From NCBI GenBank assembly GCA_041659405.1, contig JBAZYK010000008.1, positions 52,013 through 84,012 of the forward strand: a stretch of 32,000 nucleotides of DNA, given 5' to 3'. The position numbers and the translations under genes were made by a program. Source of the DNA: Candidatus Altimarinota bacterium. GTDB lineage: Bacteria; Patescibacteriota; Gracilibacteria; UBA1369. The number at the start of each line of letters is the position of its first letter. Position 1 is the stretch's first letter. Below, one piece after another: positions 4,601 through 32,000 of the stretch. The notes below the pieces were generated by a model. It did not search any database, was not told the DNA's origin, and saw only the letters and a program-made list of their open reading frames with translations.

Positions 4601-5241
4601 TCTCCTTTTTTTACATAATGAGAATCCTGAGTAGCCACCAAAGGCGCCCCGGTTATTTTAGAAAGCTCAATCAAGCGGTCATTTAAGACCTTTTGTTCGT
4701 CCAGTTGAGGATGATCCTGCAATTCCAAATAAAAATTCTCTACGCCAAAAATATCCTGATAACTGCGAATAACTTCAATTTGCTTTGCCTCGTTATCGTT
4801 CAAAACAGCCTGGGCAACCTCACCGGCCAGACACGAACTTAAGGCAATCAGACCTTTACTATGGGCTTTCATTAAGCCATGATCCATTCTTGGCTTGTAA
4901 TAAAAACCTTCCAAATGTGCCTTGGAAACAAGCTCCATTAAGTTTTTATAACCCTCAAAATTTTGCGCTAACAAAATAAGATGGAACGGTTTGCTTTCGG
5001 TTCTTGGAGCCCGATCAAAACGTGACCCCGGCGCAACATAAACCTCACAACCAATAATTGGCTTAATGCCTTCAGCTTTTGCCGCTTTATAAAACTCAAT
5101 TGCGCCATATAAAACCCCATGATCAGTCATGGCCACAGCCGGAAAGCCCAGCTCCTTAGCCCTTTGGACGATTTTTTTAGGAGTCCCCAGTCCATCAAGC
5201 AGACTGTAATGAGAATGAACGTGAAGAGGTACGTAAGCCAT
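1690..5241 (-). CDS. dnaE: DNA polymerase III alpha subunit
   Basis: The 1193-aa ORF has the PHP motif VPLHVHSHYSLLDG, the palm GPGRGSAAGSL...PDIDIDF, and a C-terminal OB region. The ORF-track start is TTG 5271. ATG 5241 (MAYVPLHVH) matches the usual DnaE N-terminus and is preferred. Confidence 0.95.
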   Translation of the reverse strand: MAYVPLHVHSHYSLLDGLGTPKKIVQRAKELGFPAVAMTDHGVLYGAIEFYKAAKAEGIKPIIGCEVYVAPGSRFDRAPRTESKPFHLILLAQNFEGYKNLMELVSKAHLEGFYYKPRMDHGLMKAHSKGLIALSSCLAGEVAQAVLNDNEAKQIEVIRSYQDIFGVENFYLELQDHPQLDEQKVLNDRLIELSKITGAPLVATQDSHYVKKGDALAQDILLCIQTQTTLEVENRMKFDGDFSMQSEEEMRRVFAHVPEAIDNTAKIAERCDLTIELGASLIPIFKKPGNETSESYLRKLCEEGLKKKFGDPTPEKAIAQLNYELGIVHKMGFDDYFLIVWDFVRFAKDQGITVGPGRGSAAGSLITYTLNITQLDPLKYGLIFERFLNPERVSMPDIDIDFADTRRDEVLAYVTEKYGKDCVAQIITFGTMAAKAAVRDVGRAMGYPYAEVDRISKLIPMPILGKHSPLKVSVEESSELSAVYRSEPRTKALLDNAIQLEGTVRHAGTHASAVVMSELPLINYCPVQRSTGGGEEVITQYSMKPIEEIGLLKMDFLGLKNLSIIQRTLQLIKFRHDIDFVLETIPMDDAASFDLLQKGDTTGVFQLESPGMRRYIRELKPTRFEDIIAMISLYRPGPMEWIPQYIKGKHDPSSIRYFHPSFEKILNETNGVAIYQEQILQIARDFAGFSLGEADLLRKAVGKKILALLNEQKEKFVKGAIGQGHGEKFAKEVFEKVIEPFAGYGFNKAHAACYAMISYQTAYLKSHYPIEFMAALLSSDYDNTERVVLEMNECNEMGIAVLPPSINDSFANFTVVDEKTIRFGLTAIKGLGEGVILDLIEVRKGGKFTTIEEFLKRAPAKLINKKTIEALAYSGALDELGDRKSLAEGFEAMSKFSKFAHEVSAQGQTDIFGMMEEVQESSTQTFTLKKAAPTSLMERLSWEKKYMGLFVSGHPLRGLKKYLSKKVNIIDSLAKKHVGKLVKIGGIITKAKKVFTKSGAYMVYGEVEDPTGRIEFVVFPKVYQLYGELIKEDQLLIMEGRLDLRRDSLQFSVNTAKAVSLDSMIRNAQELNMYDPKEKMSRKQKTLTPDPVAVEDPLMEEPVTHAPDESSAAQNLEPWQEDPFCVTIPPHFQLKKMEDLKQLLLRYPGERKVEILLGQKRLKLPFGINLSDELKLELNVMLS

Positions 5242-5662: not shown

Positions 5663-5815
5663 AAATACCTTTTCTTGCGAGAGAAGTGTAAAGCTACAAG
5701 CTTGCGTGAAGATCAAATTTCTTTCTTGACACTATCATTCTTTACGCCTAAGCTCATACTATCTGCACAGGAAATCTTAAACCAAAATTCTTCTAAAATC
5801 TTTAACTGCGAACCC

Positions 5816-6943
5816 ATGGATAACCAATTTTCTCAAAACTCTTTCACTTCTGGCACTGGTTCTACCGCTGCCACTCCCCAAAAACCGATTGGAAAGCTTG
5901 ATTTAAGTGAAATTATTGAGGATATGTTCCTGGTTCTAACGAACAAGGAAAAAGACGTTATCGTTAAAAGATTCAGTCTGGACAGCAAACCTAAGCAAAC
6001 TCTAGAGAAAATCGGCCAATCTTTCTCTGTTACACGTGAAAGAATCCGCCAGATCGAGAAAATCGCGTTAAATAAATTACGCCGCACCGTTGATAACACT
6101 AAACTCAGCATTATCAATAAACTTGCCAAGGAAACTCTTACAACCCATGGTGGTATTTTGCTTGAGAACAAGTTGGTAGCGGAAATTTTAAACAATATTA
6201 TCAGCACACAGGAAGTTGATGCAAATATCATTAAATTGGCACTCAACATCAATCCTGAAATCACCAAGATGGAAAAAACTAATACCTACAAGCCATTTTG
6301 GCACATGTTGAGTATCAGCATGGACGACATTAAATTGATTATCGAAACAGGTATCACTATTTTGAATAAAAAAGGTGATGTTATTATCGATGAAAAACTT
6401 GCAGTGGAAGTAGTGGTTGCCATAGAAGAAAAAGGCAAAAAGTTTGTAAATCCAATGATTCTTTCCGGTCTTGAAGTGGATAAGCGCGTTAAACGTATTA
6501 AAGAAGGCTTTGGCTTGATTATGTGGAGACACATCAACCCACGCAGTATTCGTGATAAAGCTTACATCGTTCTTAAAAAAGGCGGCAATCCATTGCATTT
6601 CGTTGAAATTGCCAATAAGATCGCCGAATCCGGCTTCGATAAAAAAGTAGTAACCACACAAGCCGTTCACAATGAATTGATTCGTTACGAACAATTCGTT
6701 TTGGTTGGAAGAGGCCTTTACGCTCTTAAAGAATGGGGCTACAAAAAGGGAACAGTTGCTGATGTAATTGAAAACCTTCTTCACAAAAAGAGCCCAATGA
6801 CCAAACAGGAAATCATTCAGGGAGTTCTTAAACAACGTCAGGTTAAGAAGGGGACTATCTCACTCAACCTTCAAAAGAACGCTCAATTTGTTCGTGTTGG
6901 TCGTGCGGTTTATAAGCTTGATGAATCAAAGAAGGTTGCTTAA
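5816..6943 (+). CDS. Sigma-70 region-4-like HTH plus HARE-HTH/winged-helix DNA-binding protein (no sigma regions 2/3)
   Basis: LTNKEKDVIVKRFSLD..QTLEKIGQSFSVTRERIRQIEKIALNKLRR matches the RpoD 4.2 signature. The C-terminal PLHFVEIANKIAESGF...FVLVGRGLYALKEWGY is HARE-HTH-like, as in the RpoE-delta N-terminal domain. The ORF track starts at TTG 5675. ATG 5816 is preferred by alignment with the paralog at 12703-13764. Confidence 0.8.
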   Translation: MDNQFSQNSFTSGTGSTAATPQKPIGKLDLSEIIEDMFLVLTNKEKDVIVKRFSLDSKPKQTLEKIGQSFSVTRERIRQIEKIALNKLRRTVDNTKLSIINKLAKETLTTHGGILLENKLVAEILNNIISTQEVDANIIKLALNINPEITKMEKTNTYKPFWHMLSISMDDIKLIIETGITILNKKGDVIIDEKLAVEVVVAIEEKGKKFVNPMILSGLEVDKRVKRIKEGFGLIMWRHINPRSIRDKAYIVLKKGGNPLHFVEIANKIAESGFDKKVVTTQAVHNELIRYEQFVLVGRGLYALKEWGYKKGTVADVIENLLHKKSPMTKQEIIQGVLKQRQVKKGTISLNLQKNAQFVRVGRAVYKLDESKKVA

Positions 6944-12702: not shown

Positions 12703-13764
12703 TTAATTGGCTTTAACCTTGGCCAGCGCGTATTGTTTACGACCCACACGAATAAATTCCGGGGAGTTTTTTAAGTTAAGCAGCACGGTAATCGGTTTAA
12801 CCTGGCGCACTTTTAAAACCTCATCAATGATTTCCTCCTGGTGAAGAGACTGATTCTTATTCAGGAGTGTCTTAATTACGTCAGAAACGGTCCCGTGACT
12901 GTAGCCCCACTCTTTTAGCGCATAAATGCCCCGGCCGATTAAAACAAAGTCCTGGCAGCGTATAAGTTCATTGTGAACAGCCTGAAGATTTACATTTTTA
13001 TGATCAAACCCGGAAGTAATAATCTTACTTTGAATATCAATAAAATGAAGCGGCTTTTTATCTATCCTAAGAATAAAAAAGATTTTATCACGTAAAGTTC
13101 TTGGGTTGATATTTCGCCATTCGTAAAGGCCGACCGAACTATCATTGATAAGCTTAAAATTCTTTTGAATTTGCAGCAAAGATTTAAGTGAATCAATTGT
13201 GAAGGATTTTGCCTCGAATGAAGACTTCAATTCATTGAACACTTGTCCAATTCCAACAACTTCTTTTTCTTTATGTAAAAAATTTAAAGATTTTTCCGTA
13301 ATTTCATTAATCGTGCTTTCCGAAAAAACATTCAAACGCAGGTATGGATGAAACATGATTGTGTTTGGCATGCGCTCGAATCTTTTATCCACCGATGAAA
13401 CCAAAGAAATAACGGCAGTTGAAAACTCTGAAGTTTGATTAAAGAATTTTGAAAGCAGAATATCTTCACGCAAAATCCCCCCATTAGTAGAAAGCAAATC
13501 AAAAATTATATCGTTAATCGAGTGCAGAGGACTGTTCTCTACATTCCTTCTAAGCTTCTGCAGAGCGTTCTTTTCAATCTGGCGGATTCTTTCACGTGTT
13601 ACATGAAAATGCCTCCCAATTTGTTCGAGAGTAGCTCTTTTTTTCAAGTCCAGATTGAACCTTCTTTCAATGACGAATTTCTCTTTTTGTGATAGCAGCA
13701 GCAAAAATTGAGCTACATGCTGTTGTAATTGTTCAAAGACAAGATCAACAGAAGAAGAAGTCAT
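12703..13764 (-). CDS. Sigma-70 region-4-like HTH plus HARE-HTH DNA-binding protein (paralog of 5816-6943)
   Basis: LSQKEKFVIERRFNLD..ATLEQIGRHFHVTRERIRQIEKNALQKLRR, followed by PLHFIDIQSKIITSGF...FVLIGRGIYALKEWGY. The ORF track starts at GTG 13803; ATG 13764 is preferred. Confidence 0.8.
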   Translation of the reverse strand: MTSSSVDLVFEQLQQHVAQFLLLLSQKEKFVIERRFNLDLKKRATLEQIGRHFHVTRERIRQIEKNALQKLRRNVENSPLHSINDIIFDLLSTNGGILREDILLSKFFNQTSEFSTAVISLVSSVDKRFERMPNTIMFHPYLRLNVFSESTINEITEKSLNFLHKEKEVVGIGQVFNELKSSFEAKSFTIDSLKSLLQIQKNFKLINDSSVGLYEWRNINPRTLRDKIFFILRIDKKPLHFIDIQSKIITSGFDHKNVNLQAVHNELIRCQDFVLIGRGIYALKEWGYSHGTVSDVIKTLLNKNQSLHQEEIIDEVLKVRQVKPITVLLNLKNSPEFIRVGRKQYALAKVKAN

Positions 13765-13836
13765 TTCCAAAAAGTAAAATTCTGGAAATAAGTTATAACA
13801 CACTTAACCGAAATGCAAATTATTTTTAAAACAACT

Positions 13837-18044: not shown

Positions 18045-20609
18045 ATGGACTGGACCCAGATTATAGACGCACTAAAAAAAATAGGCTTATACATACTACA
18101 AAATCCAATTTTTGTTGCCGAACTGATTGTCATCGGAATTATTGGGTTTATATATTTTGTAAAAATAATGCGGTATCTACACATGGTATTGGTAGCTTCC
18201 CGCCATTTGGTCTTTTTAAAAGTCACATTACCGCGTGAGGAATCGCCTAAAGATAAAGATAAAGCCGATGAAAAGGATTTCAAAGAAAAAATTGGAATCA
18301 TGGAACAGTTTTATCGCAATATTCATGAATTGGGTGAATTAAGTTTAAAAAACATGATTAGGACCTGGATTTGGAGGGATGATATTCTTTCCATAGAAAT
18401 AGTCGCAATCAATAAAATTGTTGAATTTTACGTTGTTGTTAATAAACGTTATAGTCAGCTTATTGAAAAGCAAATCACATCATATTACCCAAATGCCGAC
18501 ATTACTCCGGCTCAAGCTTATGACATTCAACCAAAAGGTAATAAGCTGCGATGTTATTATGCCCACTTAAAAAACAAATTTTTCTATCCGATTAAAACCT
18601 ATAAAAATCTTGAAAATGATCCGTTAAATGATCTTACCAATATTTTTTCTAAATTTGAGGACGGTGATATTGGTGTGATCCAAATAATTATCAGACCTAA
18701 AAAAAGCAAGAAATGGAGAAAGAAGGCTGAAAACGCAGCCGCTTTAATGTTTAGTGGTAAAAAACCTGAAGGATTGCGATTACCGGGCTTAGGTTGGCTT
18801 AACAGTCTTTTTGTTGGATTATTGTTCGGTGCCGATAAAGTGGCCAAAGGTGCAGAAGGAGGCGGCCCGGCCGGTCCATACGGCGCAACCTCCGGTTTTG
18901 TAAGATTACTTCAAACTCGTGAAGAAGTAGCCAAACATATTGGTGAAAAAGCCGGTGAAGATGGCTTTGACACTCTGGTCCGCGTTATTGGATCAGGCAA
19001 AACAAAATCACGCGCCAGTGAAATAACCGATAACGTTGCGCTTGGTTTAAATCTATTAAAAGATGCGCAGATGAACTGGTTCCAAACCAGACGTATTATT
19101 TTATTTGATACAATCAATAACTTCTTCATGAAGTTTAATTTCAATAAGAGATTATTGGATACCAACGTGTTTTACCTTGGTGAAAAACAATCAATTTTAG
19201 TGAGTGGTGAATTGGCAACATTGTTTCATTACCCAACCAGCCGCTACAATTACACTCCAATCATCAGATGGCTTGAATATAAAGTATTGCCTGCTCCCGT
19301 GAACGTTCCAACGGAAGGAATCCTTTTGGGCTACAACGTTTATCGCGGCGTTAAAACGCCAATTAGAATGCTTAGAGACGATCGCACCAGACATCATTAT
19401 TGCATAGGTAAATCCGGTTCGGGTAAATCCGTTTTCTTAAGCTGGATGGCCCGCCAGGACATTATTAATGGTGATGGCCTTTGCGTAATTGATCCCCATG
19501 GAGATTTGATCGAAGAGTTAATTCAATTCGTTCCAAAAGAAAGAGCTAAAGATGTGGTGATTTTCAATCCGGCGGATATGGAACGTCCAATGGGTTTAAA
19601 TATTCTGGAAGCCAAAACTCCCGAGCAGCAGGACCTTGCTTCAAGTCAGGCGACCGAAATTTTTATTAAAATATTTGGTGATGAAATCTTTGGTCCGCGT
19701 ATTCAACATTATTTCCGTAACGCCTGTTTGACGCTTATGGAAGACGAAGAAGAAGGTGCAACTTTAATTGATGTTCCCAGAATTTTCGTTGATGACGAGT
19801 TCATGAAGTACAAAGTCAGCAAGGTTAAAAATCCGATTGTGAAATCATTTTGGGAGCATGAATATGCCCATACCGGCGAACGCGAACGTCAGGAAATGAT
19901 TCCATATTTCTCGGCCAAGTTTGGTCCGTTTATCACAAACTCAATCATGAGAAATACGATTGGTCAGCCAAAATCAGCCTTCAATTTTCGTGAAATGATG
20001 GATGAAAAGAAAATTCTTTTGATTAACCTTTCCAAAGGTAAAATCGGTGATTTGAATACCCAGCTTTTGGGGTTGGTAATAGTTGCCCGTCTACAAATGG
20101 CAGCCATGAGCCGCGTTGATATTCCCGAAAAAGATCGTAAAGATTTTTATCTCTATGTGGATGAGTTCCAAAACTTTGCCACAGATTCGTTTTGCTCGAT
20201 CTTGTCCGAAGCACGTAAGTATCATCTTGGCCTAATTATGGCCCATCAGTATATTAAACAGCTGGAAAAAAAGAATGATACTTCCATTCGTGATGCGGTC
20301 TTTGGTAACGTTGGTACCATGATGTCATTTAAGGTTGGTGCCGAAGATGCCGAGTATATGGCAAAAGAATATGCTCCGGTGCTTACGGAACAGGATGTAA
20401 TTGGTATTGCCAACTTCAAAGCCTACATCAAACTGAATATCAAAAATTCAACTTCCAGACCATTTTCGATGGAGACGGTTTACGACATGAGTAAGGCTAA
20501 TCCAAAGATTGGCGAAATCGTTACTCAATATTCACGCATGAAATACGGCCGCAAAAAGGAATTCGTCGACCAGGAAATCTCGGCACGTATTGGCGTTGAT
20601 ATGAGCTAA
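18045..20609 (+). CDS. Membrane-anchored VirD4/TraD/TrwB-like (type IV coupling protein-like) P-loop ATPase with a large uncharacterised N-terminal region
   Basis: N-terminal TM helix IFVAELIVIGIIGFIYFV. Walker A is GKSGSGKS and Walker B is FYLYVDEFQNF. DPHGDL, RKYHLGLIMAHQ and the overall layout are typical of TraD/TrwB_AAD_bind proteins. Confidence 0.8.
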   Translation: MDWTQIIDALKKIGLYILQNPIFVAELIVIGIIGFIYFVKIMRYLHMVLVASRHLVFLKVTLPREESPKDKDKADEKDFKEKIGIMEQFYRNIHELGELSLKNMIRTWIWRDDILSIEIVAINKIVEFYVVVNKRYSQLIEKQITSYYPNADITPAQAYDIQPKGNKLRCYYAHLKNKFFYPIKTYKNLENDPLNDLTNIFSKFEDGDIGVIQIIIRPKKSKKWRKKAENAAALMFSGKKPEGLRLPGLGWLNSLFVGLLFGADKVAKGAEGGGPAGPYGATSGFVRLLQTREEVAKHIGEKAGEDGFDTLVRVIGSGKTKSRASEITDNVALGLNLLKDAQMNWFQTRRIILFDTINNFFMKFNFNKRLLDTNVFYLGEKQSILVSGELATLFHYPTSRYNYTPIIRWLEYKVLPAPVNVPTEGILLGYNVYRGVKTPIRMLRDDRTRHHYCIGKSGSGKSVFLSWMARQDIINGDGLCVIDPHGDLIEELIQFVPKERAKDVVIFNPADMERPMGLNILEAKTPEQQDLASSQATEIFIKIFGDEIFGPRIQHYFRNACLTLMEDEEEGATLIDVPRIFVDDEFMKYKVSKVKNPIVKSFWEHEYAHTGERERQEMIPYFSAKFGPFITNSIMRNTIGQPKSAFNFREMMDEKKILLINLSKGKIGDLNTQLLGLVIVARLQMAAMSRVDIPEKDRKDFYLYVDEFQNFATDSFCSILSEARKYHLGLIMAHQYIKQLEKKNDTSIRDAVFGNVGTMMSFKVGAEDAEYMAKEYAPVLTEQDVIGIANFKAYIKLNIKNSTSRPFSMETVYDMSKANPKIGEIVTQYSRMKYGRKKEFVDQEISARIGVDMS

Positions 20610-22202: not shown

Positions 22203-24002
22203 TTAATCAACAACGTTAAATGAAGTTTGGAGAATTCCCATGCTGCAAACGGCATCGACAGTGCCGGTTTGAGTTGGGGTGAAGTTTATAATGTTTTTTC
22301 CAATTTTAAGAAGTTTGGCTACCCCAAATTCCGGAATCACCATTGTGCCCATACACCCGCCCAAATCGACCTGATCATCAACAGTAAGCTCCACCGGAAT
22401 CCCTTTTTTTATGGTAGTCACAGGAGGATCAAAACCACGATCAGCGGTAACAGTTACAGTAATTTTTTGAACGCTAGAGTTGTCCGCGGCAGGATCATAC
22501 GGCTGAGTTTCGGCCTCGAAAATTTTTGGAGTACCTGTGTTTAAAACAATAGCATTTTGGCTATTACTCTGATTGGTATTTTCAATCACATTAAAAATTC
22601 CCGGCGTCATCATTCCCATGGTGCAATTAAACGAAATTTGTCCAACAGAATCAGGCGTAAAATTGATAATTTTGGTGTTATCTCTTGGCAGCAATTCCGT
22701 AAGTCCAAGACTTGGAACAGTAAGAACTTGCCCACAACCGGCGGCCCCCGCATTATAAACACGCCATTCAACCGGTACCCCTTTAACAATCGTAAATTGA
22801 CTTGGAGTATAGGTGTAACCTTTAACATTCATTTCCACAATTTGTTTTCCATTTTCGATTTTTACCGCATTAGATTGAGCCGTGCCGGTTTTAATTGAAT
22901 CAGTTTGTGATTGAACGCCATTGTTATTTCCTCTAAAAAACGAAGTTACCGCCGAAGCATTAAATCCAGCTAAAGCCAAACCATTATTTATATTGAATAA
23001 GCCAAGAATTAACACCAGCACTCCGGAAAACTTTAAGAAATAGCGTTGGAATTTTCCTTCGGCAAAACTGGAAATCGCGCTTAAAGAAAGCAAAGCCGGT
23101 AAAGTCCCAAGTGCGAAAAATAGCATGATCAACGCTCCATCAATAAAATTTCCTCTGCTTATAACGTAAAGCTGTAAAGATTGAGTAAATCCGCAAGGAA
23201 GAAAAAATGTCAGACCTCCCATTAAAAACGGCAATCCTTTGTTTTGCTTATTTTCAAGCTTTAAAATTTTATGACTAATGACTTTTGGCAGCCTTGGCGA
23301 ATATTTATGAAGTCCCGGAAAAAGTTTAAGAATGCGCATTCCCATCAAAATCATAAACAAAGATGCAATAATGCTGACGATTCCGGTAACTCTTGCTGAA
23401 ACGGTAAAAAAGGATCCAAGTCCGCCAAGTAAACCGCCCAAAACCGTATAAGAAACAATTCTTCCCGCATTAAAAAGCAGATGCGGCTTAAGTTTTTCCA
23501 AGTGCGTTTTAGGTTGATAGGTTTCGTTATACTTTGCAGCCAAAGATAAAAGCACACCGCCGGTCACCGCTATACAGCTAGAACTCGCCGCCACAAGGCC
23601 AATCAAAAAGATAAAGCCATAACTCATGTTGGCACTGATACCCAGATTGAAATCAAAAACATTGGCTTGTTTTAGCAAAATATACAAACCAAAAATAATG
23701 ATCAAGATGGCTCCGATTTCCAGATAATCACGTTTTGTATTCCTTGTTTGCGCCTTGGATTTTACACCAGCATTATCAATTCCATCCGCAATAATTTTAT
23801 AACCATCGGCAGCTACAACATTCTGAAATTCCTGCAAAGACGGCTCTGAACCGTCAAAATGAACGACCGCTTTTCCCGATGCTTGATTCACTTTCACGGA
23901 ACTAACTCCCGGAATTTTATGAAATTTTCGTTCAATCAAAACCTCGCAACTTGCGCAAGTCATTCCCTCGATTTTGAGTTCAATTTTATTCTTTTTAGGC
24001 AT
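22203..24002 (-). CDS. Fusion protein: HMA domain, polytopic DsbD_2/TauE-SafE-like membrane domain, and two C-terminal cupredoxin-like domains
   Basis: GMTCASC near the N-terminus. Membrane Cys motifs are SSSCIAVTGG and FLPCGFTQ. Two repeated ~90-aa beta-rich units each carry GC...C(T/S)MG. The ORF track starts at TTG 24014; ATG 24002 is preferred. Confidence 0.75.
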   Translation of the reverse strand: MPKKNKIELKIEGMTCASCEVLIERKFHKIPGVSSVKVNQASGKAVVHFDGSEPSLQEFQNVVAADGYKIIADGIDNAGVKSKAQTRNTKRDYLEIGAILIIIFGLYILLKQANVFDFNLGISANMSYGFIFLIGLVAASSSCIAVTGGVLLSLAAKYNETYQPKTHLEKLKPHLLFNAGRIVSYTVLGGLLGGLGSFFTVSARVTGIVSIIASLFMILMGMRILKLFPGLHKYSPRLPKVISHKILKLENKQNKGLPFLMGGLTFFLPCGFTQSLQLYVISRGNFIDGALIMLFFALGTLPALLSLSAISSFAEGKFQRYFLKFSGVLVLILGLFNINNGLALAGFNASAVTSFFRGNNNGVQSQTDSIKTGTAQSNAVKIENGKQIVEMNVKGYTYTPSQFTIVKGVPVEWRVYNAGAAGCGQVLTVPSLGLTELLPRDNTKIINFTPDSVGQISFNCTMGMMTPGIFNVIENTNQSNSQNAIVLNTGTPKIFEAETQPYDPAADNSSVQKITVTVTADRGFDPPVTTIKKGIPVELTVDDQVDLGGCMGTMVIPEFGVAKLLKIGKNIINFTPTQTGTVDAVCSMGILQTSFNVVD

Positions 24003-24048
24003 ATTAAAATTCAAGAAGAAATAAGATAAGATGTTAAACCCAACTTAT

Positions 24049-24489: not shown

Positions 24490-27210
24490 TTATGCAATCC
24501 TGGAGCTGAATTTGGCAAATTCCCAGAACAGAAAGGAAAAGAACAAAATCATGATTACAGGGGCGATTTTCGACAGGTAATTTCTTCTATTTGGCTTAAA
24601 ATAGCGCAATAAGAGTGAATTTGTCACCACGGAAACCGAACTTAATGCCATCGCCAAACCGGCAAGTTCAGGCTTTAAAATCAGTCCCCACCCCATGAAT
24701 ATACGGGCGGCAATTGGGATTCCAATAACATTATAGAAAAGCGCGAAAAACATATTTTGCTTAATTTTAGCCATTGTCTCGCGTGAAAGTTCAATGCTAG
24801 AAACCACATCACGAAGGTCATTTCTAATGATAACGATTCCACCCGTTTCCATGGCCACATCCGTTCCCGAGCCCATCGCAATACCAAGATCGGCCTGTGC
24901 TAAAGCAGGTGCATCATTAATTCCATCACCAACCATGGCGACTTTTTTACCCAACGCCTGGATTTTTTTAACCTCTTCCGCTTTTCCATCAGGCAAAACT
25001 TCAGCAAGAACGTTTTGGATACCCAGTTCGGCGGCAATCGCGCCAGCCGTTCTTTTGTTATCACCGGTGATCATATAAAGCTCAATACCCATCTTTTTAA
25101 GCTTGGAAATAGCTTCTTTTGAGGTTTCCTTGATTGTATCAGCCACAGCGATTAAACCAATGATTTCGTTACCCTGCGCCAGAATCATTACAGTTTTACC
25201 CTGATCTTCAAGTTTTGCAATTTTACGCTCATACTTTCCAATATCCACTTTGGCATAGTCCGCCATCAGCTTACGATTCCCAAAAAAGTAGATGTTTTTC
25301 TGAATAGTTCCATTAACTCCGTGCCCGGGGATCGCCTTAAAATCAGAAACTTCCTCCAAATCCAAGCTTTCTTCCTGCGCATGAGTATAAATTGCTTCCG
25401 CAAGAGGATGCTCTGAAAGCCTTTCCAAAGAGGCGGACATAGTTAAAATGTCATCTTCATCCAATTTACCAAAACTTATAACATCTGTTACCTCCGGTTT
25501 TCCTTTTGTTAGAGTTCCCGTTTTATCAAAAATAATTGTGTTGATTCCCTGAGCGGATTCAAGCGGTTCGCCCCCTTTAATCAAAATTCCATATTCCGCA
25601 CCTTTACCTGTTCCAACCATAATAGCGGTTGGTGTAGCAAGTCCCAAAGCGCACGGACACGCAATTACGATGACAGCTGTAAAAGCAAGGAGAGCAAACG
25701 AAAGTGATGCGCCAAGAATGAAAAACCAAACCAGAAATGTCAGAATGGCAATTCCAATGACCGCAGGAACAAACCATGAAGAAATTTTATCGGCAAACGC
25801 CTGAATTGGAGCCTTGGATCCTTGAGCTTCTTCAATCAAACGAATAATTTGAGCCAAAGTCGTTTCTGCTCCAACACGTGTAGCCTTGAATTCAAACGTG
25901 CCATTTTTATTGATAGTTGCCCCAATAACATTATCTCCGGCATTTTTTTCAACCGGAATACTTTCCCCCGTAACCATCGACTCATCAATCGAAGAATTTC
26001 CTTTTGTGATTACTCCATCCACCGGCACTTTTTCGCCGGGTCGCACCAAAATAATATCATCATGAATAACCTTATCAATTGGAATATCCAGAGTTTCACC
26101 ATTTCTGATTACCCGAGCAGTTTTGGCCTGCAAACCCATCAATTTTTTAATTGCTTCGGAAGTATTTCCTTTTGCCCGAGCCTCTAACCACTTACCTAAA
26201 ATCACAAAGGTAATCAGGAAGGCCGCAGTTTCAAAATAAAGTTCCGGGATCTTTTCACCATTCACGCCAAAGAAAGTTTTATTGGAAACGGCGTAACTCA
26301 CATAATTTATCAAACTATAAAAAAAGGCGGTGGAAGTTCCAATTGCAATCAAACTATCCATATTAAAAGTTTTCATGCGCAAGCTTGACCACATTCCTTT
26401 ATAAAATCCCACGCCCGGCCCAAACTGCACAGGAATCGTCAAAAGCAGCGAAATAATTCCTACGTAAGGCATCAAAACTTCCGCCCCAGGGAGAAACTTA
26501 AAGAAATCCAAAAACATAAAGTAAACCATCGGCAAACTAAATACCAATGAAATCAGAAATTTATTTTTAATGGCATTCAGGTCCGCTTTTTTCCTTTTAT
26601 TTTCTTCTTCAGAATTGGCTTCATTAACAAGATTTGCCGAATACCCGGCCTTTTTTACCGCATTAAACAGGTCATCAAGCGAATTAACATTTTCATCAAA
26701 ATTGACCATAGCCTTTTCCGAACCAAAATTAACATGAGCTTCTTTTACACCGGGAAGCTTTTTAAGAACCCGTTCAATAATCGCCGCGCACGAAGAACAG
26801 TTCATCCCGGAAAGGCCCAGATGCACACGTTTGTTATTTTCTTTTTTTGTAGAAACCACCTCCATCTTTCCATTTAAAGGCGAAGCCACCGACTGCACCT
26901 GCAAAACCGTTGGCTCATTATTTTTACCAATATTTTCAAAAAGATTACTGAAATTCACTGCCTGTAAAAAATTATGAACGAAAGAAGCTGATTTATCATC
27001 TTTTTTATCCAGATGAAACTCCGCAAACTTTTCATTTTTTATTTTGCCTTCAAATTGTGGCTTCCCATTGGCATCCTGAATAATCCGGCCTTCCGCTTCA
27101 ATCCGCGATTCAAGAATAACCTTCAGCGGTTCTCCATTCGCGCTTTGCTTAATTAAAACATTATTCTCCGGCTCCTGAATTGGAGAAGTTTTTGTTGAGT
27201 CTTTTTTCAT
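24490..27210 (-). CDS. copA: Copper-translocating P1B-type ATPase
   Basis: HMA GMNCSSC, TGES, CPC in the TM helix, DKTGTLT, and GDGINDAP; 906 aa. Confidence 0.95.
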
Positions 27211-27238
27211 GGGGAAAATTGATTATATAATTTATAAA

Positions 27239-27505
27239 TTATTTATTGGAAAGTTTGGTAACCTTTAAAATTTCCTGAATCATCTCTTTTTGCTTTGATT
27301 CATTGTTGGTTTTCATCGCGTCTTTAAAGCAGCAATTTAAATGATTTTCCATCAACATCAAATGGGCGGACTTTAAAAGCCCAACCACGGCCGAATTCTG
27401 CTGCATAACGTCAATACAATATTTGCCTTCTTCAACCATTTTAATGATTTTCTCGAGGTGACTTTTGGCTTTTTTGAAGTTTATTAAGATTTTTTGATCG
27501 GTCAT
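27239..27505 (-). CDS. csoR: CsoR-family copper-sensing repressor
   Basis: 88 aa. The C30/H55/C59 spacing (C-x24-H-x3-C) matches the Cu(I) CsoR fingerprint. Confidence 0.85.
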   Translation of the reverse strand: MTDQKILINFKKAKSHLEKIIKMVEEGKYCIDVMQQNSAVVGLLKSAHLMLMENHLNCCFKDAMKTNNESKQKEMIQEILKVTKLSNK

Positions 27506-27522
27506 AAAAGTGGATTAAATAG

Positions 27523-27547
27523 ATACCTACACCTATGGTACAGGTAT
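27523..27547. promoter_or_regulatory. Candidate CsoR operator (nested palindrome) upstream of csoR
   Basis: ATACCTACACCTATGGTACAGGTAT has 18 of 25 positions self-complementary (outer ATACCT/AGGTAT, inner ACC-TAT-GGT). It lies 18-42 nt upstream of the csoR ATG. Confidence 0.5.
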
Positions 27548-27698
27548 AAATAATCGAAAGCAAGACCATTTTAAAAATTTATCTTTTGACATAGCCGCAG
27601 AGATTGCCGTTTTGGCAGGCACACTCCAATTCCACCGTTCAGGCGTAAACCCGCTGGATATGAAGGATATTTTTAGATTTTCCAAAGGACGATTTAAA

Positions 27699-27994
27699 CT
27701 AGTTCTTTGGTAAAAAGTTTTCACCGGTAATCACACTTTTTCCCGTTTCTGATTCCAATTCTTTTCGGGCATTTTTCCATCTTGAGCTACCATTTTCAGT
27801 TGGTCACATTTTGTGACCAACTCACTTCCTTCGTTCTTGAGGCGGTTTTTCAGGGTAGTCCAATAACTTTTAGCTTTTTTAAAATCCGGTTGTTGAATCA
27901 GCACCCCAACAACATCAATCACCGAAAAATACCACTGCTCATTGTGCCAAGTTTTGCGAATTGTACTTTGTTCAAACGGAATAATATTATTCAT
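27699..27994 (-). pseudogene. Internally deleted and frameshifted Bro-N/DinD-like (antirepressor-type) gene remnant
   Basis: The N-terminal part MNNIIPFEQSTIRKTWHNEQWYFSVIDVVGVL...YWTTLKNRLKNEGSELVTKCDQLKMVAQDGK fits the family. After an A5 run the family-typical C-terminal tail ARKELESETGKSVITGENFLPK appears in another frame. The ~180-aa middle part is missing. Confidence 0.6.
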
Positions 27995-28022
27995 AATGTT
28001 TTTATAAAAGATAACAATCATC

Positions 28023-29045
28023 CTATTTTATTTCACCGGGTAAAAATTTAATAAATTGATCAAAGTCGGATTCATAAAGCTTATCTTGAACTGGTCGATA
28101 TTTTTCAAATTCACTTTCAGCGAAGCTCTTAGCGATTGCCGCAGTAACCTTACCGACATCTTTTAAAATGTTTTTTGAGTTAAATTGTAAAAACACATTG
28201 AGCTTTTGCGACCAATCTTTCATGGTCATTGGAATACCGTTTTCCGCCTGATCTTCAGCGTAATCCAAATACATAGTCACAAAACGATTGAGTGACTTGA
28301 TCTCTTTTTCGTTTAGGTAATTTTTAGCTATGGAAACATCAGATTTAAGAACCTTTCCATGGGGAGCCTTTTTCCATGTTTTAAGCCCCATATACTCTTT
28401 TTGGTGGTTTGCTCTTTCAACAATCAACTCTGCGGCTGTGTGCCCATGGATAGCATAATGAAGCTTATTTTGAACTGTGGCAAAAAAATCCTTGGTTGTT
28501 TCCGCCTGTGGATCATAATCCATGGCAGTAACATAAATATCCGTAATTTTTTGGTAGAAATTCCGCTCGCTTTCGCGAATATCGCGAATTTCAAGAATCA
28601 AGTCATCAAAGTATTTTTTGCTGAAATACGCACCATTTTTCAGTCTTTCATTATCCAAAACATACCCGCGGATGGCATACGCTTTCAGTACTTGCGTCGA
28701 CCATCTTCTAAACTCAGTGGCCCTCTCGGAATTGATACGATAGCCAAGAGCAATAATCGCCTCTAAATTATAATGTTTTGTATTGTATTTCTTGCCGTCC
28801 TCGGCAGTTATTAGGAAATTCCTAATAACTGAATTTTCCTCTAATTCATACGATGAATAAATATTTTTAAGATGCTCATTGATGGTCGGAATTTGTACAT
28901 CAAAAAGTTTGGCAATAAATTTTTGAGTCAGCCAAACATTTTCATCCTGAACCCTCACTTCAACACCATCTTCCCCAGCCTGTGAAGTAAAAATTAAAAA
29001 CTCAGCAGTAGAGTTTCGTATCCTGAGCTGTTTATCATTTTTCAT
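28023..29045 (-). CDS. RhuM-family protein
   Basis: IRNFLITAEDGKKYNTKHYNLEAIIALGYRINSERATEFRRWSTQVLKAYAIRGYVLDNERLKNG is the typical RhuM core; 340 aa. Confidence 0.85.
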   Translation of the reverse strand: MKNDKQLRIRNSTAEFLIFTSQAGEDGVEVRVQDENVWLTQKFIAKLFDVQIPTINEHLKNIYSSYELEENSVIRNFLITAEDGKKYNTKHYNLEAIIALGYRINSERATEFRRWSTQVLKAYAIRGYVLDNERLKNGAYFSKKYFDDLILEIRDIRESERNFYQKITDIYVTAMDYDPQAETTKDFFATVQNKLHYAIHGHTAAELIVERANHQKEYMGLKTWKKAPHGKVLKSDVSIAKNYLNEKEIKSLNRFVTMYLDYAEDQAENGIPMTMKDWSQKLNVFLQFNSKNILKDVGKVTAAIAKSFAESEFEKYRPVQDKLYESDFDQFIKFLPGEIK

Positions 29046-29063
29046 AAGATCGCATTATAAAAC

Positions 29064-29116
29064 ATAACCGCCCCCATTATGGGTGAGCGTACACTCACCG
29101 TCAAGGTGATTTTATC
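29064..29116. repeat. 53-bp repeat, copy 1 (minus strand reads TTGACG-17-CATAAT with a GGTGAG-N6-CTCACC palindrome in the spacer)
   Basis: 52/53 identical to 30110-30162. The flanks are unrelated. Confidence 0.9.
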
Positions 29117-29118
29117 TT

Positions 29119-29874
29119 TCACCCCTCAACCGCACCCACCGCCTTCACATACGCGCAAAAATCACAATCCACACCTGCGGCCGGCATTTCATCCGAATTC
29201 AAACAATCCTGAATATCTGCAATCGACCCACCCACCCAGGAATCATCGCCGACATACGGAATAACTTTAATATCAAACTCCAGTTTGCCATTAAAGGCCT
29301 CTTTACCCGCATCGCCATTGCAATAAACAAAGTAACCGGTTGGCGAAACCTTAAATCCATTCCTACGAAACAGCCATTGGTAAACCTCCATTTGGCGTTT
29401 ATAGCCGATCTGCCAGTCCGCATCCAAAGAAACATCACCGGCCTTAGAAGTCGCCTTATAATCAACAATAATCAGCTCACCCTGCGGATTTACCCAAACA
29501 TCATCAACTCCACCCGTTATTAAAAGATTAGTCCCGGGAACCAGGTAAGTCACACCTCTTCGGAGCGAATCGCGCCATTCATCAATGCGATCATGGGCCA
29601 GGGGAATGGCATCAATCCCATATTGCCGCATCAAAGGATGAGCAGTGCCTTCAGCCCTATGAATATCAAACTCTTTTTTAAGCAAGGCATCAACCGCCGA
29701 ATTCAAAGAAAATGGATACCCCGGAGGCCTTCCCACACCCAATCTTCGATCCAAATAAAAACACCTTGGACAATTCAAAAAGAGGTCGATTTTGGAACGA
29801 CTCAAACGAAAAGTATCGGAAGAACCGGGTTGATAAATGTTTCTGGTGCGTTGAGGGTTGTAGTATTGGGACAT
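29119..29874 (-). CDS. PD-(D/E)XK nuclease, Cas4/RecB-like, with Cys cluster
   Basis: GGVDDVW, IIVDYK (DxK), QMEVYQWL (QxxxY), N-terminal CPRC, and C-terminal C-x12-C-x2-C. Visibly GC-richer than the flanking genes. Confidence 0.8.
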   Translation of the reverse strand: MSQYYNPQRTRNIYQPGSSDTFRLSRSKIDLFLNCPRCFYLDRRLGVGRPPGYPFSLNSAVDALLKKEFDIHRAEGTAHPLMRQYGIDAIPLAHDRIDEWRDSLRRGVTYLVPGTNLLITGGVDDVWVNPQGELIIVDYKATSKAGDVSLDADWQIGYKRQMEVYQWLFRRNGFKVSPTGYFVYCNGDAGKEAFNGKLEFDIKVIPYVGDDSWVGGSIADIQDCLNSDEMPAAGVDCDFCAYVKAVGAVEG

Positions 29875-29889
29875 ATAAAATTGTTAATT

Positions 29890-30070
29890 TTAGTTAAGAC
29901 ATAATTTTTTCATTACAGACCATTGCTGAGGGGAAAGATTAAAACGGTTTGTTCCTGCCTCATTTTTAAACCCCTCGAATTCGTGGGGTTTAAAATTTTG
30001 ATTATTGAGTTTCTCCATCAATCTCAATGATGTTGATCTCGTTTCCCTGAATAGTTAACTTTTGAGTCAT
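29890..30070 (-). pseudogene. KilA-N domain gene remnant (two out-of-frame fragments)
   Basis: Fragment 1 (30070-30002) is MTQKLTIQGNEINIIEIDGETQ*. Fragment 2 (30018-29890) is MEKLNNQNFKPHEFEGFKNEAGTNRFNLSPQQW... These match the N-terminus and the 'WE.LNNPNF..EF..FKN.AG.N.F.LSP..W' centre of KilA-N family proteins, judged from memory. The rest is absent. Confidence 0.55.
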
Positions 30071-30109
30071 ATTTCGTACTAAATTTAAGATTTCAAAACC
30101 ATCTCATCG

Positions 30110-30162
30110 ATAACCGCCCCCATTATGGGTGAGCGTACACTCACCGTCAAGATGATTTTATC
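30110..30162. repeat. 53-bp repeat, copy 2
   Basis: 52/53 identical to 29064-29116, with the single difference A at 30151 versus G at 29105. Confidence 0.9.
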
Positions 30163-30177
30163 AAAAATGAAAGTTTG

Positions 30178-31095
30178 TTAATTATGTTTAAGAGATAACT
30201 TTAATTTTTTTTGCGCAAATTGATCGGCCTCCTGCTCTAATTCCGAGTTGTCGTGCCCCTTGTTAAAATCCACAAACACTTCTTTTTTACTGTGTTTTAT
30301 CAAATGACTTATTTCATGAAAGAATGTAAACCAAAAACAATCTGCATATTTATATCTTAAGCTCACTTGAATCAAGGCTCTTTTTGGGGTTAACCACCTT
30401 GTCGCGCCATTTACATTCGTATTTTTCAAACACGGAGTATAAACAAGAGCAACTCCACATTCCGCGCATAATTCCACTAATTTTTTTGAATACTGCCCGG
30501 CATCTTTAGTTGTCAGCCCTCTCATCTCATCTAATTTATTTCGTAATTTTTCAAGATCAAACTCGCTTGTTTTAAGCTTATTAGCTTCAATATGCCCTAT
30601 TTTAAGCCATGCGGCCAATGATTCATTATTGGTTTTTTCAACATGCGACCTTCTAAATGCAACCGGAATCACTTGCCGAATTGCCAGGAGGGAATCCACA
30701 GCAAAAAATTTCAATAATTCTTCCACTTTCTCAACCGGATCCCTGGTTTTCTTTACATATCCCAATTTTACCAGCTCAAGATAACATGAAAATTTCCCTA
30801 AATGCTGCGATTCCTCCTCCAATCTTTTTGTTTCCTTTATTCTTAAAAGATCCGCATCGTATTGAGACTGCATATTTAAAAGTCCCAACTTTGAAATACC
30901 CAACACTCTTTCAAACTTTAAAGCTGTTTCCGGAGTAACAGGATTTTTCCCATTTAAAATCTCGCTGATCGTTTTCTCCGCCAACCCAGTGCTTAGGCTT
31001 AAATCGGCTTGAGATATACCCAAAACTTCCAGTGTTTCTTTCACTGTTTCCCCAGGATGGATTGCTATCGGTGATGTGTAGCCGGTTGTTCCCAT
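30178..31095 (-). CDS. HigA-type XRE HTH fused to an ImmA/IrrE (COG2856, HExxH) metallopeptidase domain
   Basis: The N-terminus IHPGETVKETLEVLGISQADLSLSTGLAEKTISEILNGKNPVTPETALKFERVLG is HigA/VapI-like. The C-terminus FTFFHEISHLIKH is the Zn-peptidase motif. Confidence 0.8.
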   Translation of the reverse strand: MGTTGYTSPIAIHPGETVKETLEVLGISQADLSLSTGLAEKTISEILNGKNPVTPETALKFERVLGISKLGLLNMQSQYDADLLRIKETKRLEEESQHLGKFSCYLELVKLGYVKKTRDPVEKVEELLKFFAVDSLLAIRQVIPVAFRRSHVEKTNNESLAAWLKIGHIEANKLKTSEFDLEKLRNKLDEMRGLTTKDAGQYSKKLVELCAECGVALVYTPCLKNTNVNGATRWLTPKRALIQVSLRYKYADCFWFTFFHEISHLIKHSKKEVFVDFNKGHDNSELEQEADQFAQKKLKLSLKHN

Positions 31096-31103
31096 AAGTT
31101 TGG

Positions 31104-31439
31104 TTAAATGTGGTAATTAGCAATGCCCAAAATTTCTACCGCTACGATCGTTGTTTGATTGGCCGGATCATATTCTCCATGTGGAACAAATATAAGTCGC
31201 CATTTTCCTCTTCCACCGCCAAGACTTGGCAGATCAACCGCAAAGTACCTGAACTTATTCCCGTCCTTGATCGAATGTTTCCTGGTATTCAGCGGGAGGT
31301 CCGCATAAGAAGGGAACGATCCAATCTCGCGAAGCCTTGTGACAACACTTTTTGCGACTTTCTCGTCGTATTTAGACTTTAAGTGGTTAAAATCCTCCAG
31401 TTCCTTCCTCAGTTTTTCATTTTTCCAATGTATCTCCAT
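31104..31439 (-). CDS. HigB-like (RelE/ParE superfamily, 'killer protein') toxin
   Basis: 111 aa. The toxin-upstream-of-antitoxin order, WRLIFVP, and the C-terminal ILGIANYH resemble the HigB ...DYH ending. The gap to the downstream HTH gene is 8 nt. Confidence 0.65.
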   Translation of the reverse strand: MEIHWKNEKLRKELEDFNHLKSKYDEKVAKSVVTRLREIGSFPSYADLPLNTRKHSIKDGNKFRYFAVDLPSLGGGRGKWRLIFVPHGEYDPANQTTIVAVEILGIANYHI

Positions 31440-31589
31440 AATATAGCCATGTTACAAAAATGTCAATTCTGGTTTACCTGAAAGGTAAAGAAAAATAAAG
31501 AATATTTAATGCAGAGCTTATGCATAACAAAAAAATAGCACACCTAGATTAAAACAATCTAAAATAAAACTAAAAAGTAGGTATTTTAA

Positions 31590-31900
31590 TTAGTTACTAA
31601 ACAACCTTACCACTTCATCAAAATTTTTAAATCGACTCTTTTCCCACTCCTCCTGTTTAATATACAGTGCTTTATAAACTACTCTACTTTGACGATCATT
31701 AACATCTTCGCACCATTTTTGCAGACGTTCAAATTTTAATTTATCGTTTTCCTCTTCACGTCCCTTTGTTTCAACGATATAAACCGTTTTTTCGTCCTTT
31801 TTTACAAAGAAATCGGGATAGTATGTGGCGATAAACCCTTCAGCATTTTTATATTCAATTCTGAGGGCGCATGCTAAAGTGGTTCCCTTTGTCCAGACAG
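31590..31900 (-). pseudogene. 3' fragment of a type III restriction Res/helicase-associated endonuclease-like gene, 5' part replaced by an IS
   Basis: My translation gives ...RIEYKNAEGFIATYYPDFFVKKDEKTVYIVETKGREEENDKLKFERLQKWCEDVN...*, which carries the PD-(D/E)XK signature Y-PDF...VETKG. No start codon or N-terminal domains are present. The upper boundary is approximate. Confidence 0.5.
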
Positions 31901-31913
31901 TTTTTTGAGATTT

Positions 31914-32000
31914 TTAAGAGAGATTTTGGAAATAAATTTGGGCTGGGGTTTTGTAGTTGAGTGACTGGTGAGGACGAACATTGTTGTAGAAATGAAAGTA
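31914..32000 (-). mobile_element. 3' end of a DDE transposase (rve/integrase-core type, IS3/IS481-like); the rest is outside the window
   Basis: My translation gives YFHFYNNVRPHQSLNYKTPAQIYFQNLS*, the typical rve C-terminal FYN..RPH.SL...TP. Confidence 0.65.

Follow-up and report, generated by a model that had tools for sequence, protein, structure and literature searches.

The DNA analyzed here, referred to as the window, is a 32-kb (32,000-nt) stretch of contig JBAZYK010000008.1 from Candidatus Altimarinota bacterium, and our subject is a pair of 53-nt direct repeats near its end, together with the genes that they adjoin. The nearby genes are all coded on the minus strand. Read along that strand, an open reading frame (ORF) of 111 amino acids (aa) and a gene for an XRE-type helix-turn-helix (HTH) protein fused to an M78 peptidase domain (XRE-M78) are followed by repeat copy 2, a leader, a gene for a Cas4-like PD-(D/E)XK nuclease, repeat copy 1, a rhuM gene and the remnant of a Bro-N gene (Table 1). 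A repeat search over the window found the two copies to be 98% identical at a spacing of 1046 nt, in agreement with an initial annotation that had described near-identical 53-bp repeats with one mismatch; the sole difference is a G at 29106 versus an A at 30152. The pair is by far the top repeat of the window, the next families reaching at most 37 nt at ~65–80% identity. Identical nuclease and XRE proteins occur in the same gene neighborhood on other recorded contigs, and the repeat pair is therefore not an assembly artifact. A short contig from an independent assembly that carries an identical XRE gene (L012) terminates inside the 53-nt repeat (1754–1782), as assemblers break at repeats.

Both copies read as promoters on the minus strand. 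The promoter scan called TTGACG-17 nt-CATAAT in each (29104–29076 and 30150–30122), matching the consensus at 10 of 12 positions. The spacer and the final base of the -35 element are taken up by an 18-bp near-palindrome, GGTGAGTGTACGCTCACC, in which eight of nine pairs are symmetric. Its core, GGTGAGCGTACACTCACC, has just two occurrences in the window, one in each repeat copy, against a chance expectation of 0.01 at up to three mismatches; a search for GGTGAG-N6-CTCACC at up to two mismatches gave the same two sites and no others. The distances listed in the initial annotation held when re-derived: copy 1 lies 18 nt from the RhuM ATG (29045) and 2 nt from the nuclease stop codon, and copy 2 lies 15 nt from the XRE stop codon, 235 nt from the nuclease ATG (29874) and 39 nt from a short ORF starting at 30070. 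A second palindrome that had been noted over the -10 element, CCCAT-T-ATGGG, does exist in the window, but it is conserved in none of the related promoters described below, and we treat it as incidental.

The exact 23-mer made of the operator plus TTGAC was searched in one genome per bacterial species. It was found in 10 loci, all in Peregrinibacteria, Peribacteria or “Gracilibacteria” metagenome-assembled genomes (MAGs), with at most three sites per genome, on different contigs. A metagenome scan (operator plus YAT) returned 11 further stretches, about half of them new sites and the remainder repeating sites of the genome scan. At the related sites, the palindrome is placed exactly between TTGAC(G/A) and a TATNNT -10 element, 12–55 nt 5′ of a same-strand start codon. 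Over the ~236 kb formed by the window and these loci, 25 sites were counted, every one intergenic and co-oriented with its downstream gene, and no additional copy was found at zero or one arm mismatch. The first base of the -10 element is T in all 20 of the other aligned promoters and C only in the two window copies. That the copies are complete sigma70-type promoters, each with a palindromic operator in its spacer, is upheld by this conservation of the same -35/palindrome/-10 module in related genomes of the Candidate Phyla Radiation (CPR), as is the wiring of two transcription units to one operator, matching modules preceding both the nuclease leader and rhuM.

The genes found downstream of the module are lexA (10/10), recA (three sites), radA (two), dinD (one) and a small ORF (two). 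Where tested, the NCBIfam scores of the first four exceed their curated cutoffs (lexA TIGR00498, 160 bits against 111; recA, 398 against 325; radA, 515 against 403; dinD, 370 against 242). The module also precedes five accessory genes of the Bro-N/KilA/RhuM type, the window’s own rhuM not counted.

Because the DNA scans had selected for the motif, a motif-independent test was run on lexA. The genes of seven LexA homologs, 61–76% identical to the LexA of locus L002, were fetched by protein sequence alone, and all seven carry TTGACGGTGAG-N6-CTCACCTATAAT (CTCACC, then TATAAT, or TATAGT in one case) ~30–55 nt before the lexA start codon. The arms are constant, whereas the central six bases vary (TGAACG, TACATA, TGTACA, TATATA, TATATG). 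Constant arms around a free center are the pattern expected for an operator that binds a dimer, and the occurrence of the site at 10 of the 10 lexA genes of relatives reads as the signature of LexA autoregulation. The lineage encodes a canonical LexA, composed of LexA_DNA_bind (PF01726) and Peptidase_S24 (PF00717) domains. Against E. coli LexA structures it aligns over its whole length, with the Ala-Gly cleavage site and the Ser and Lys residues retained; the recognition helix differs (SSDNSILKH versus SPNAAEEH in E. coli). The window’s ValRS is 100% identical to an NCBI protein from a “Candidatus Gracilibacteria bacterium” MAG and its other named homologs are mostly from Peregrinibacteria or Gracilibacteria, which places the window in the Peregrinibacteria/Gracilibacteria lineage.

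Since the downstream set includes lexA, recA, radA and dinD, LexA is the likeliest binding protein, and the module would be the lineage’s SOS box. Within the CPR, the GGTGAGTGTACGCTCACC-type palindrome most likely serves the Peregrinibacteria/Peribacteria branch as its SOS box. We conclude that the two 53-bp copies are probably SOS promoters of this lineage, through which LexA, and not the XRE protein, would switch the nuclease and RhuM genes in response to DNA damage. LexA binding and damage induction we infer from the anatomy of the module, its conservation, the genes downstream of it and the canonical LexA of the lineage. A LexA dimer would occupy the arms GGTGAG and CTCACC, with half-site centers 12 bp apart, and, the operator lying between the -35 and -10 elements, bound LexA would exclude RNA polymerase. 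DNA damage would then provoke RecA-stimulated self-cleavage of LexA and release both promoters. From copy 2, a transcript of the 235-nt leader and the PD-(D/E)XK nuclease gene would follow, and from copy 1, a transcript of rhuM and the decayed Bro-N gene. Transcription from copy 2 may well continue into rhuM, since the promoter/terminator scan called no minus-strand terminator-like site between the nuclease gene and rhuM.

Several points weigh against this assignment. The LexA motif for which PMC7739468 cites Sanchez-Osuna et al. 2017 is a direct repeat, whereas the site in the window is palindromic. There is no lexA gene in the 32-kb window, and the -10 element of the window copies (CATAAT) is weaker. 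Both DNA scans were exact-match, so that the sites before genes other than lexA are biased to a TGTACG center and the full regulon is not defined by them. LexA binding is itself deduced by sequence comparison, and this leaves room for another conserved DNA-damage regulator that binds the palindrome and has lexA merely as one of its targets; damage regulons outside LexA control are known, examples being those of DdrO/IrrE (Deinococcus) and PafBC (Actinobacteria). We consider such a regulator unlikely. The site stands before every one of the 10 lexA genes, a hallmark of a LexA that controls its own gene, its geometry suits a LexA dimer, and no alternative regulator gene recurs beside the sites; a global regulator other than LexA is the less economical explanation.

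The initial annotation had instead proposed the adjacent XRE-M78 protein as the repressor, in an ImmR/ImmA-like circuit in which it would bind GGTGAG-N6-CTCACC, repress both promoters and be removed by its own peptidase domain. The gene does end 15 nt before copy 2, its product does combine an HTH with an HExxH-bearing M78 domain, and ImmR/ImmA and DdrO/IrrE are real precedents for circuits of this kind. Yet the identical operator fronts lexA, recA, radA and dinD in other genomes, and tblastn detected no XRE-M78 homolog at any other operator-carrying locus. The HTH scores as a HigA-family antitoxin above the curated cutoff (TIGR02607, 61.4 bits against 47.7), and in the toxin-antitoxin-like layout of the gene with the 111-aa ORF, an operator of its own would be expected upstream of 31439 rather than past its stop codon. 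Where an ImmR/ImmA-type or DdrO/IrrE-type module has a separate XRE repressor and M78 peptidase, and an operator specific to the module that co-occurs with its regulator, the window has a single fused protein and an operator that exists elsewhere without XRE-M78. This proposal thus appears very unlikely to us, and the XRE-M78 gene is, to judge from these comparisons, a neighbor of the circuit and not a member of it.

The pair had alternatively been taken to mark a cassette of ~1.05 kb, inserted or duplicated. Part of this stands, in that a recent local event, either duplication or gene conversion, appears to have copied the promoter; the nuclease gene, by contrast, is probably not a recent foreign insert, since the order nuclease-then-SOS-promoter is conserved in two other genomes and the raised G+C content is a family trait. 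If the repeats mainly marked the ends of a mobile or inserted nuclease cassette, as att-like or recombination sites with only an incidental promoter look, their direct orientation and unrelated flanks, the G+C content of the nuclease gene above its surroundings, the occurrence of its nearest homologs in other contexts beside restriction-modification or defense genes and the transposase fragment at the window end would all fit. However, the repeat unit is a conserved promoter module that is found singly before core genes elsewhere, no integrase is adjacent, and the nuclease homologs are richer in G+C than their own locus in all six loci checked, for which reason raised G+C was rejected as a sign of a foreign cassette. 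Neither the exact 23-mer nor a degenerate 20-base pattern had a match in the viral contigs searched, which leaves a phage-borne module without support, and no prophage context was seen around the module. We judge a mobile cassette bounded by the repeats to be highly improbable. A dispersed element of the repetitive extragenic palindrome (REP) or miniature inverted-repeat transposable element (MITE) kind, a structured RNA or a terminator is an extremely remote prospect. The palindrome can form a hairpin of 6–7 bp, but the sites are all intergenic, co-oriented and fixed between the -35 and -10 elements. Copies scattered in both orientations and inside genes, for which the initial annotation had suggested looking, did not occur in the ~236 kb; this distribution excludes a REP/MITE element and favors the promoter-operator reading. 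The RNA element or terminator was dropped as well, there being no Rfam match at E ≤ 1 over 27000–32000, an ordinary fold of copy 1 with its flanks (z = -1.9), no U-tract after the hairpin on the coding strand and no minus-strand terminator call at the repeats.

The organization of related loci bears on how the SOS promoters came to lie around the nuclease gene. Related promoters have only ~29 bp in common with the window copies, whereas the window copies are also alike over 12 nt to either side. Their 53-nt identity, with the C of the -10 element that they alone share, indicates that one was recently copied from the other through a duplication or a gene conversion. Nuclease homologs 74–75% identical to that of the window lie directly upstream of a putative SOS promoter in L004/L014, as does a homolog in L015. 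The order in L004 is nuclease gene, promoter, KilA-like gene and purC. In L015 it is promoter, RhuM-like gene, helicase gene, XRE/DUF4065 gene, 139-aa ORF, nuclease gene, promoter, Bro-N gene and purC; the promoter of the RhuM-like gene is 3.4 kb away on the upstream side of the nuclease gene, and the two sites, 4.65 kb apart, bracket that gene as they do in the window. The promoters of the Bro-N, RhuM-like and KilA-like genes (L015 3649–3669 and 8302–8322; L004 4780–4802) are alike over ~25 nt upstream of the -35 element and over much of the 5′ leader. This extended likeness of the flanks holds within one genome (L015) and between two (L015 and L004), and it suggests that accessory genes are passed on together with their promoters. 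On this model, the module would typically accompany Bro-N/RhuM/KilA-type accessory genes in a variable region beside the nuclease gene. We put forward, as a possibility somewhat short of probable, that GGTGAG-N6-CTCACC is an undescribed LexA motif specific to Peregrinibacteria/Peribacteria and that the 29-bp unit of -35, operator and -10 is a portable SOS promoter, copied with genes of the Bro-N, RhuM, DinD and KilA types into the variable region beside the Cas4-like nuclease.

The products of the putative SOS genes were compared with their relatives. The nuclease scores under the cutoff of the cas4 model TIGR00372 and belongs to a very large, unusually conserved family that is widespread in the CPR, with more than 8000 homologs, the best 120 of which are at least 72% identical to it. 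Its nearest homologs (P0126 and P0130, 80–82% identical) lie in the other contexts mentioned above, without the operator; they may come from other CPR lineages and are uninformative as to regulation. They are found behind an MmeI-like restriction-modification gene or a T5orf172 gene. The RhuM-like gene of L006/L015 is 52% identical to the window’s rhuM product, shorter (186 aa) and behind the same promoter module. In tblastn searches, the Bro-N remnant matched residues 8–75 and, in another frame, residues 243–263 of the 273–278-aa Bro-N proteins encoded behind the module in L015 and L017. The leader ORFs at 29890–30070 had been labeled a KilA-N remnant, a label we could not sustain: they have no Pfam match at E ≤ 10 and no significant similarity by tblastx or blastn to any of the loci, those with Bro-N/KilA genes included. 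The leader may be what is left of an older gene that was under SOS control and has since decayed. The small ORF begins ~29 nt after the site in both of its loci, which come from different genomes (L001, minus strand, site at 5025; L018, site at 2744), and its product ends ...HLELAVRSLNLQRMP or ...RLELRVRSLNLNRLP; this would be a small protein under SOS control, perhaps a cell-division inhibitor or a toxin.

Table 1. Features of the repeat region (positions in the window) and genes found behind the same module in related loci.
Feature	Position or locus	Strand	Basis or remark
Bro-N gene remnant with internal deletion (pseudogene), downstream of rhuM	27711–28021	-	tblastn
RhuM-family protein, 340 aa, weak Bro-N-like N-terminus	28023–29045	-	PF13310, E = 2e-108
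Copy 1 of the 53-bp promoter-operator module	29064–29116	-	Direct repeat, promoter scan, alignment with 20 related promoters; predicted to drive rhuM and the Bro-N pseudogene
Copy 1, -10 element CATAAT	29076–29081	-	Start predicted near 29069
Copy 1, operator GGTGAGTGTACGCTCACC, 18 bp, 8/9 palindromic pairs	29082–29099	-	Proposed LexA (SOS) box; arms GGTGAG/CTCACC invariant at all related sites
Copy 1, -35 element TTGACG	29099–29104	-	Shares its final base with the start of the operator; TTGAC invariant in 22/22 aligned promoters
PD-(D/E)XK (Cas4-like) nuclease, 251 aa	29119–29874	-	PF12705, E = 8e-13
Leader from copy 2 to the nuclease ATG	29875–30109	-	Short broken ORFs only: 22 aa from 30070, 45 aa at 29890–30027
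Copy 2 of the 53-bp module	30110–30162	-	Predicted to drive the 235-nt leader and the nuclease gene
Copy 2, -10 element CATAAT	30122–30127	-	Start predicted near 30115
Copy 2, operator, 18 bp	30128–30145	-	Pattern search
Copy 2, -35 element TTGACG	30145–30150	-	Promoter scan
HigA-type HTH antitoxin domain fused to M78 (ImmA/IrrE-like) peptidase domain, HExxH, 305 aa	30178–31095	-	HTH_3, Peptidase_M78
111-aa ORF in toxin-gene position	31104–31439	-	Ends 8 nt before the XRE-M78 gene; no family match
lexA downstream of the module	L002, L016, L020		Seven more fetched by protein similarity
recA downstream of the module	L010, L019, L023		
radA downstream of the module	L005, L008		
dinD downstream of the module	L007		
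RhuM-like gene downstream of the module	L006/L015		
Bro-N or KilA-like genes downstream of the module	L003, L004, L009/L015, L017		
Conserved 51–52-aa ORF downstream of the module	L001, L018		

Upstream of copy 2, the 111-aa ORF and the XRE-M78 gene have the look of a toxin-antitoxin pair in which the antitoxin is fused to a peptidase. The top sigma70-like match of the region, TTGACA-17-TATTAT (31466–31438), has a -10 element that overlaps the ATG of the 111-aa ORF, and because of this overlap either the start codon or the promoter call is doubtful. The window closes, within 31596–32000, with the C-terminal portion of an rve-type transposase (YFHFYNNVRPHQSLNYKTPAQIYF*), and the ENA contig ends 14 nt further on, an assembly break at an insertion sequence. 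Just inside the transposase lies a 3′ gene fragment whose translation resembles the C-terminus of a putative PD-(D/E)XK restriction enzyme. The region of the SOS-type promoters sits at the edge of an accessory island. A copper-resistance cluster is made up of a CsoR-type repressor (27239–27505), a CopA ATPase (24490–27210) and an HMA/DsbD_2/cupredoxin protein (22203–24014), and a type IV secretion coupling protein is encoded at 18045–20609. Proteins with sigma-70 region 4 are encoded at 5675–6943 (plus strand) and 12703–13803 (minus strand); a 68-nt inverted repeat with 74% complementarity (5999–6066 and 13565–13632) reflects their paralogy. The remaining window is ordinary chromosome, with DnaE, ValRS and RlmN.

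A LexA box inside a promoter is a textbook arrangement and the circuit is an ordinary one, so that these observations are of value for annotation and for what they add on this lineage, not as a new mechanism. They would give the RhuM-family and Cas4-like nuclease genes of an uncultured CPR bacterium a concrete regulator (LexA) and signal (DNA damage), and they correct a tempting misassignment of the XRE-M78 gene as the repressor. They also offer a sharply defined operator, usable to reconstruct the SOS regulon across Peregrinibacteria genomes. If the portable SOS promoter is real, much of the SOS regulon of these small genomes would consist of accessory genes without known function, plus the conserved 51-aa peptide.

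The motif may be undescribed. LexA motifs differ between phyla according to the introduction of PMC8565304, and GGTGAG-N6-CTCACC is not among the motifs given in PMC8565304 or PMC7739468; a full-text literature search on LexA in CPR lineages and on the motif string gave nothing relevant. The E. coli (CTGT-N8-ACAG) and Gram-positive (GAAC-N4-GTTC) LexA boxes resemble the operator of the window in being palindromes for a dimeric repressor over the core promoter and, as with LexA boxes generally, in their presence at lexA itself and recA; the E. coli box also has the same 12-bp spacing of half-site centers. The site described here differs in that it always fills the -35/-10 spacer exactly, and in that it is a predicted LexA site. 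The SOS network of Patescibacteria and its LexA were reportedly studied by comparative genomics by Sanchez-Osuna, Barbe and Erill in 2017, in the same superphylum and for the same regulator as proposed here. ImmR/ImmA of ICEBs1 and DdrO/IrrE of Deinococcus, in which an M78 peptidase cleaves an XRE repressor, share with the window, where they are encoded beside the repeats, an XRE HTH and an M78 HExxH domain, and with the proposed circuit a logic of damage-triggered derepression; in the window, however, the two domains are fused, the HTH is of the HigA type and the operator is common to lexA, recA and radA of other genomes. Parallels are also found where accessory or mobile-element genes of the Bro-N type lie directly under a host SOS box, as with E. 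coli dinD and with LexA-controlled prophage antirepressor genes, namely tum of coliphage 186 and the Gifsy antirepressors. The dinD equivalog of L007 (370 bits) likewise carries the GGTGAG-N6-CTCACC module, as E. coli dinD sits under an SOS box. In contrast to dinD and the prophage antirepressors, the module here fronts genes for a RhuM-family protein and for a Cas4-like nuclease, both on a CPR chromosome.

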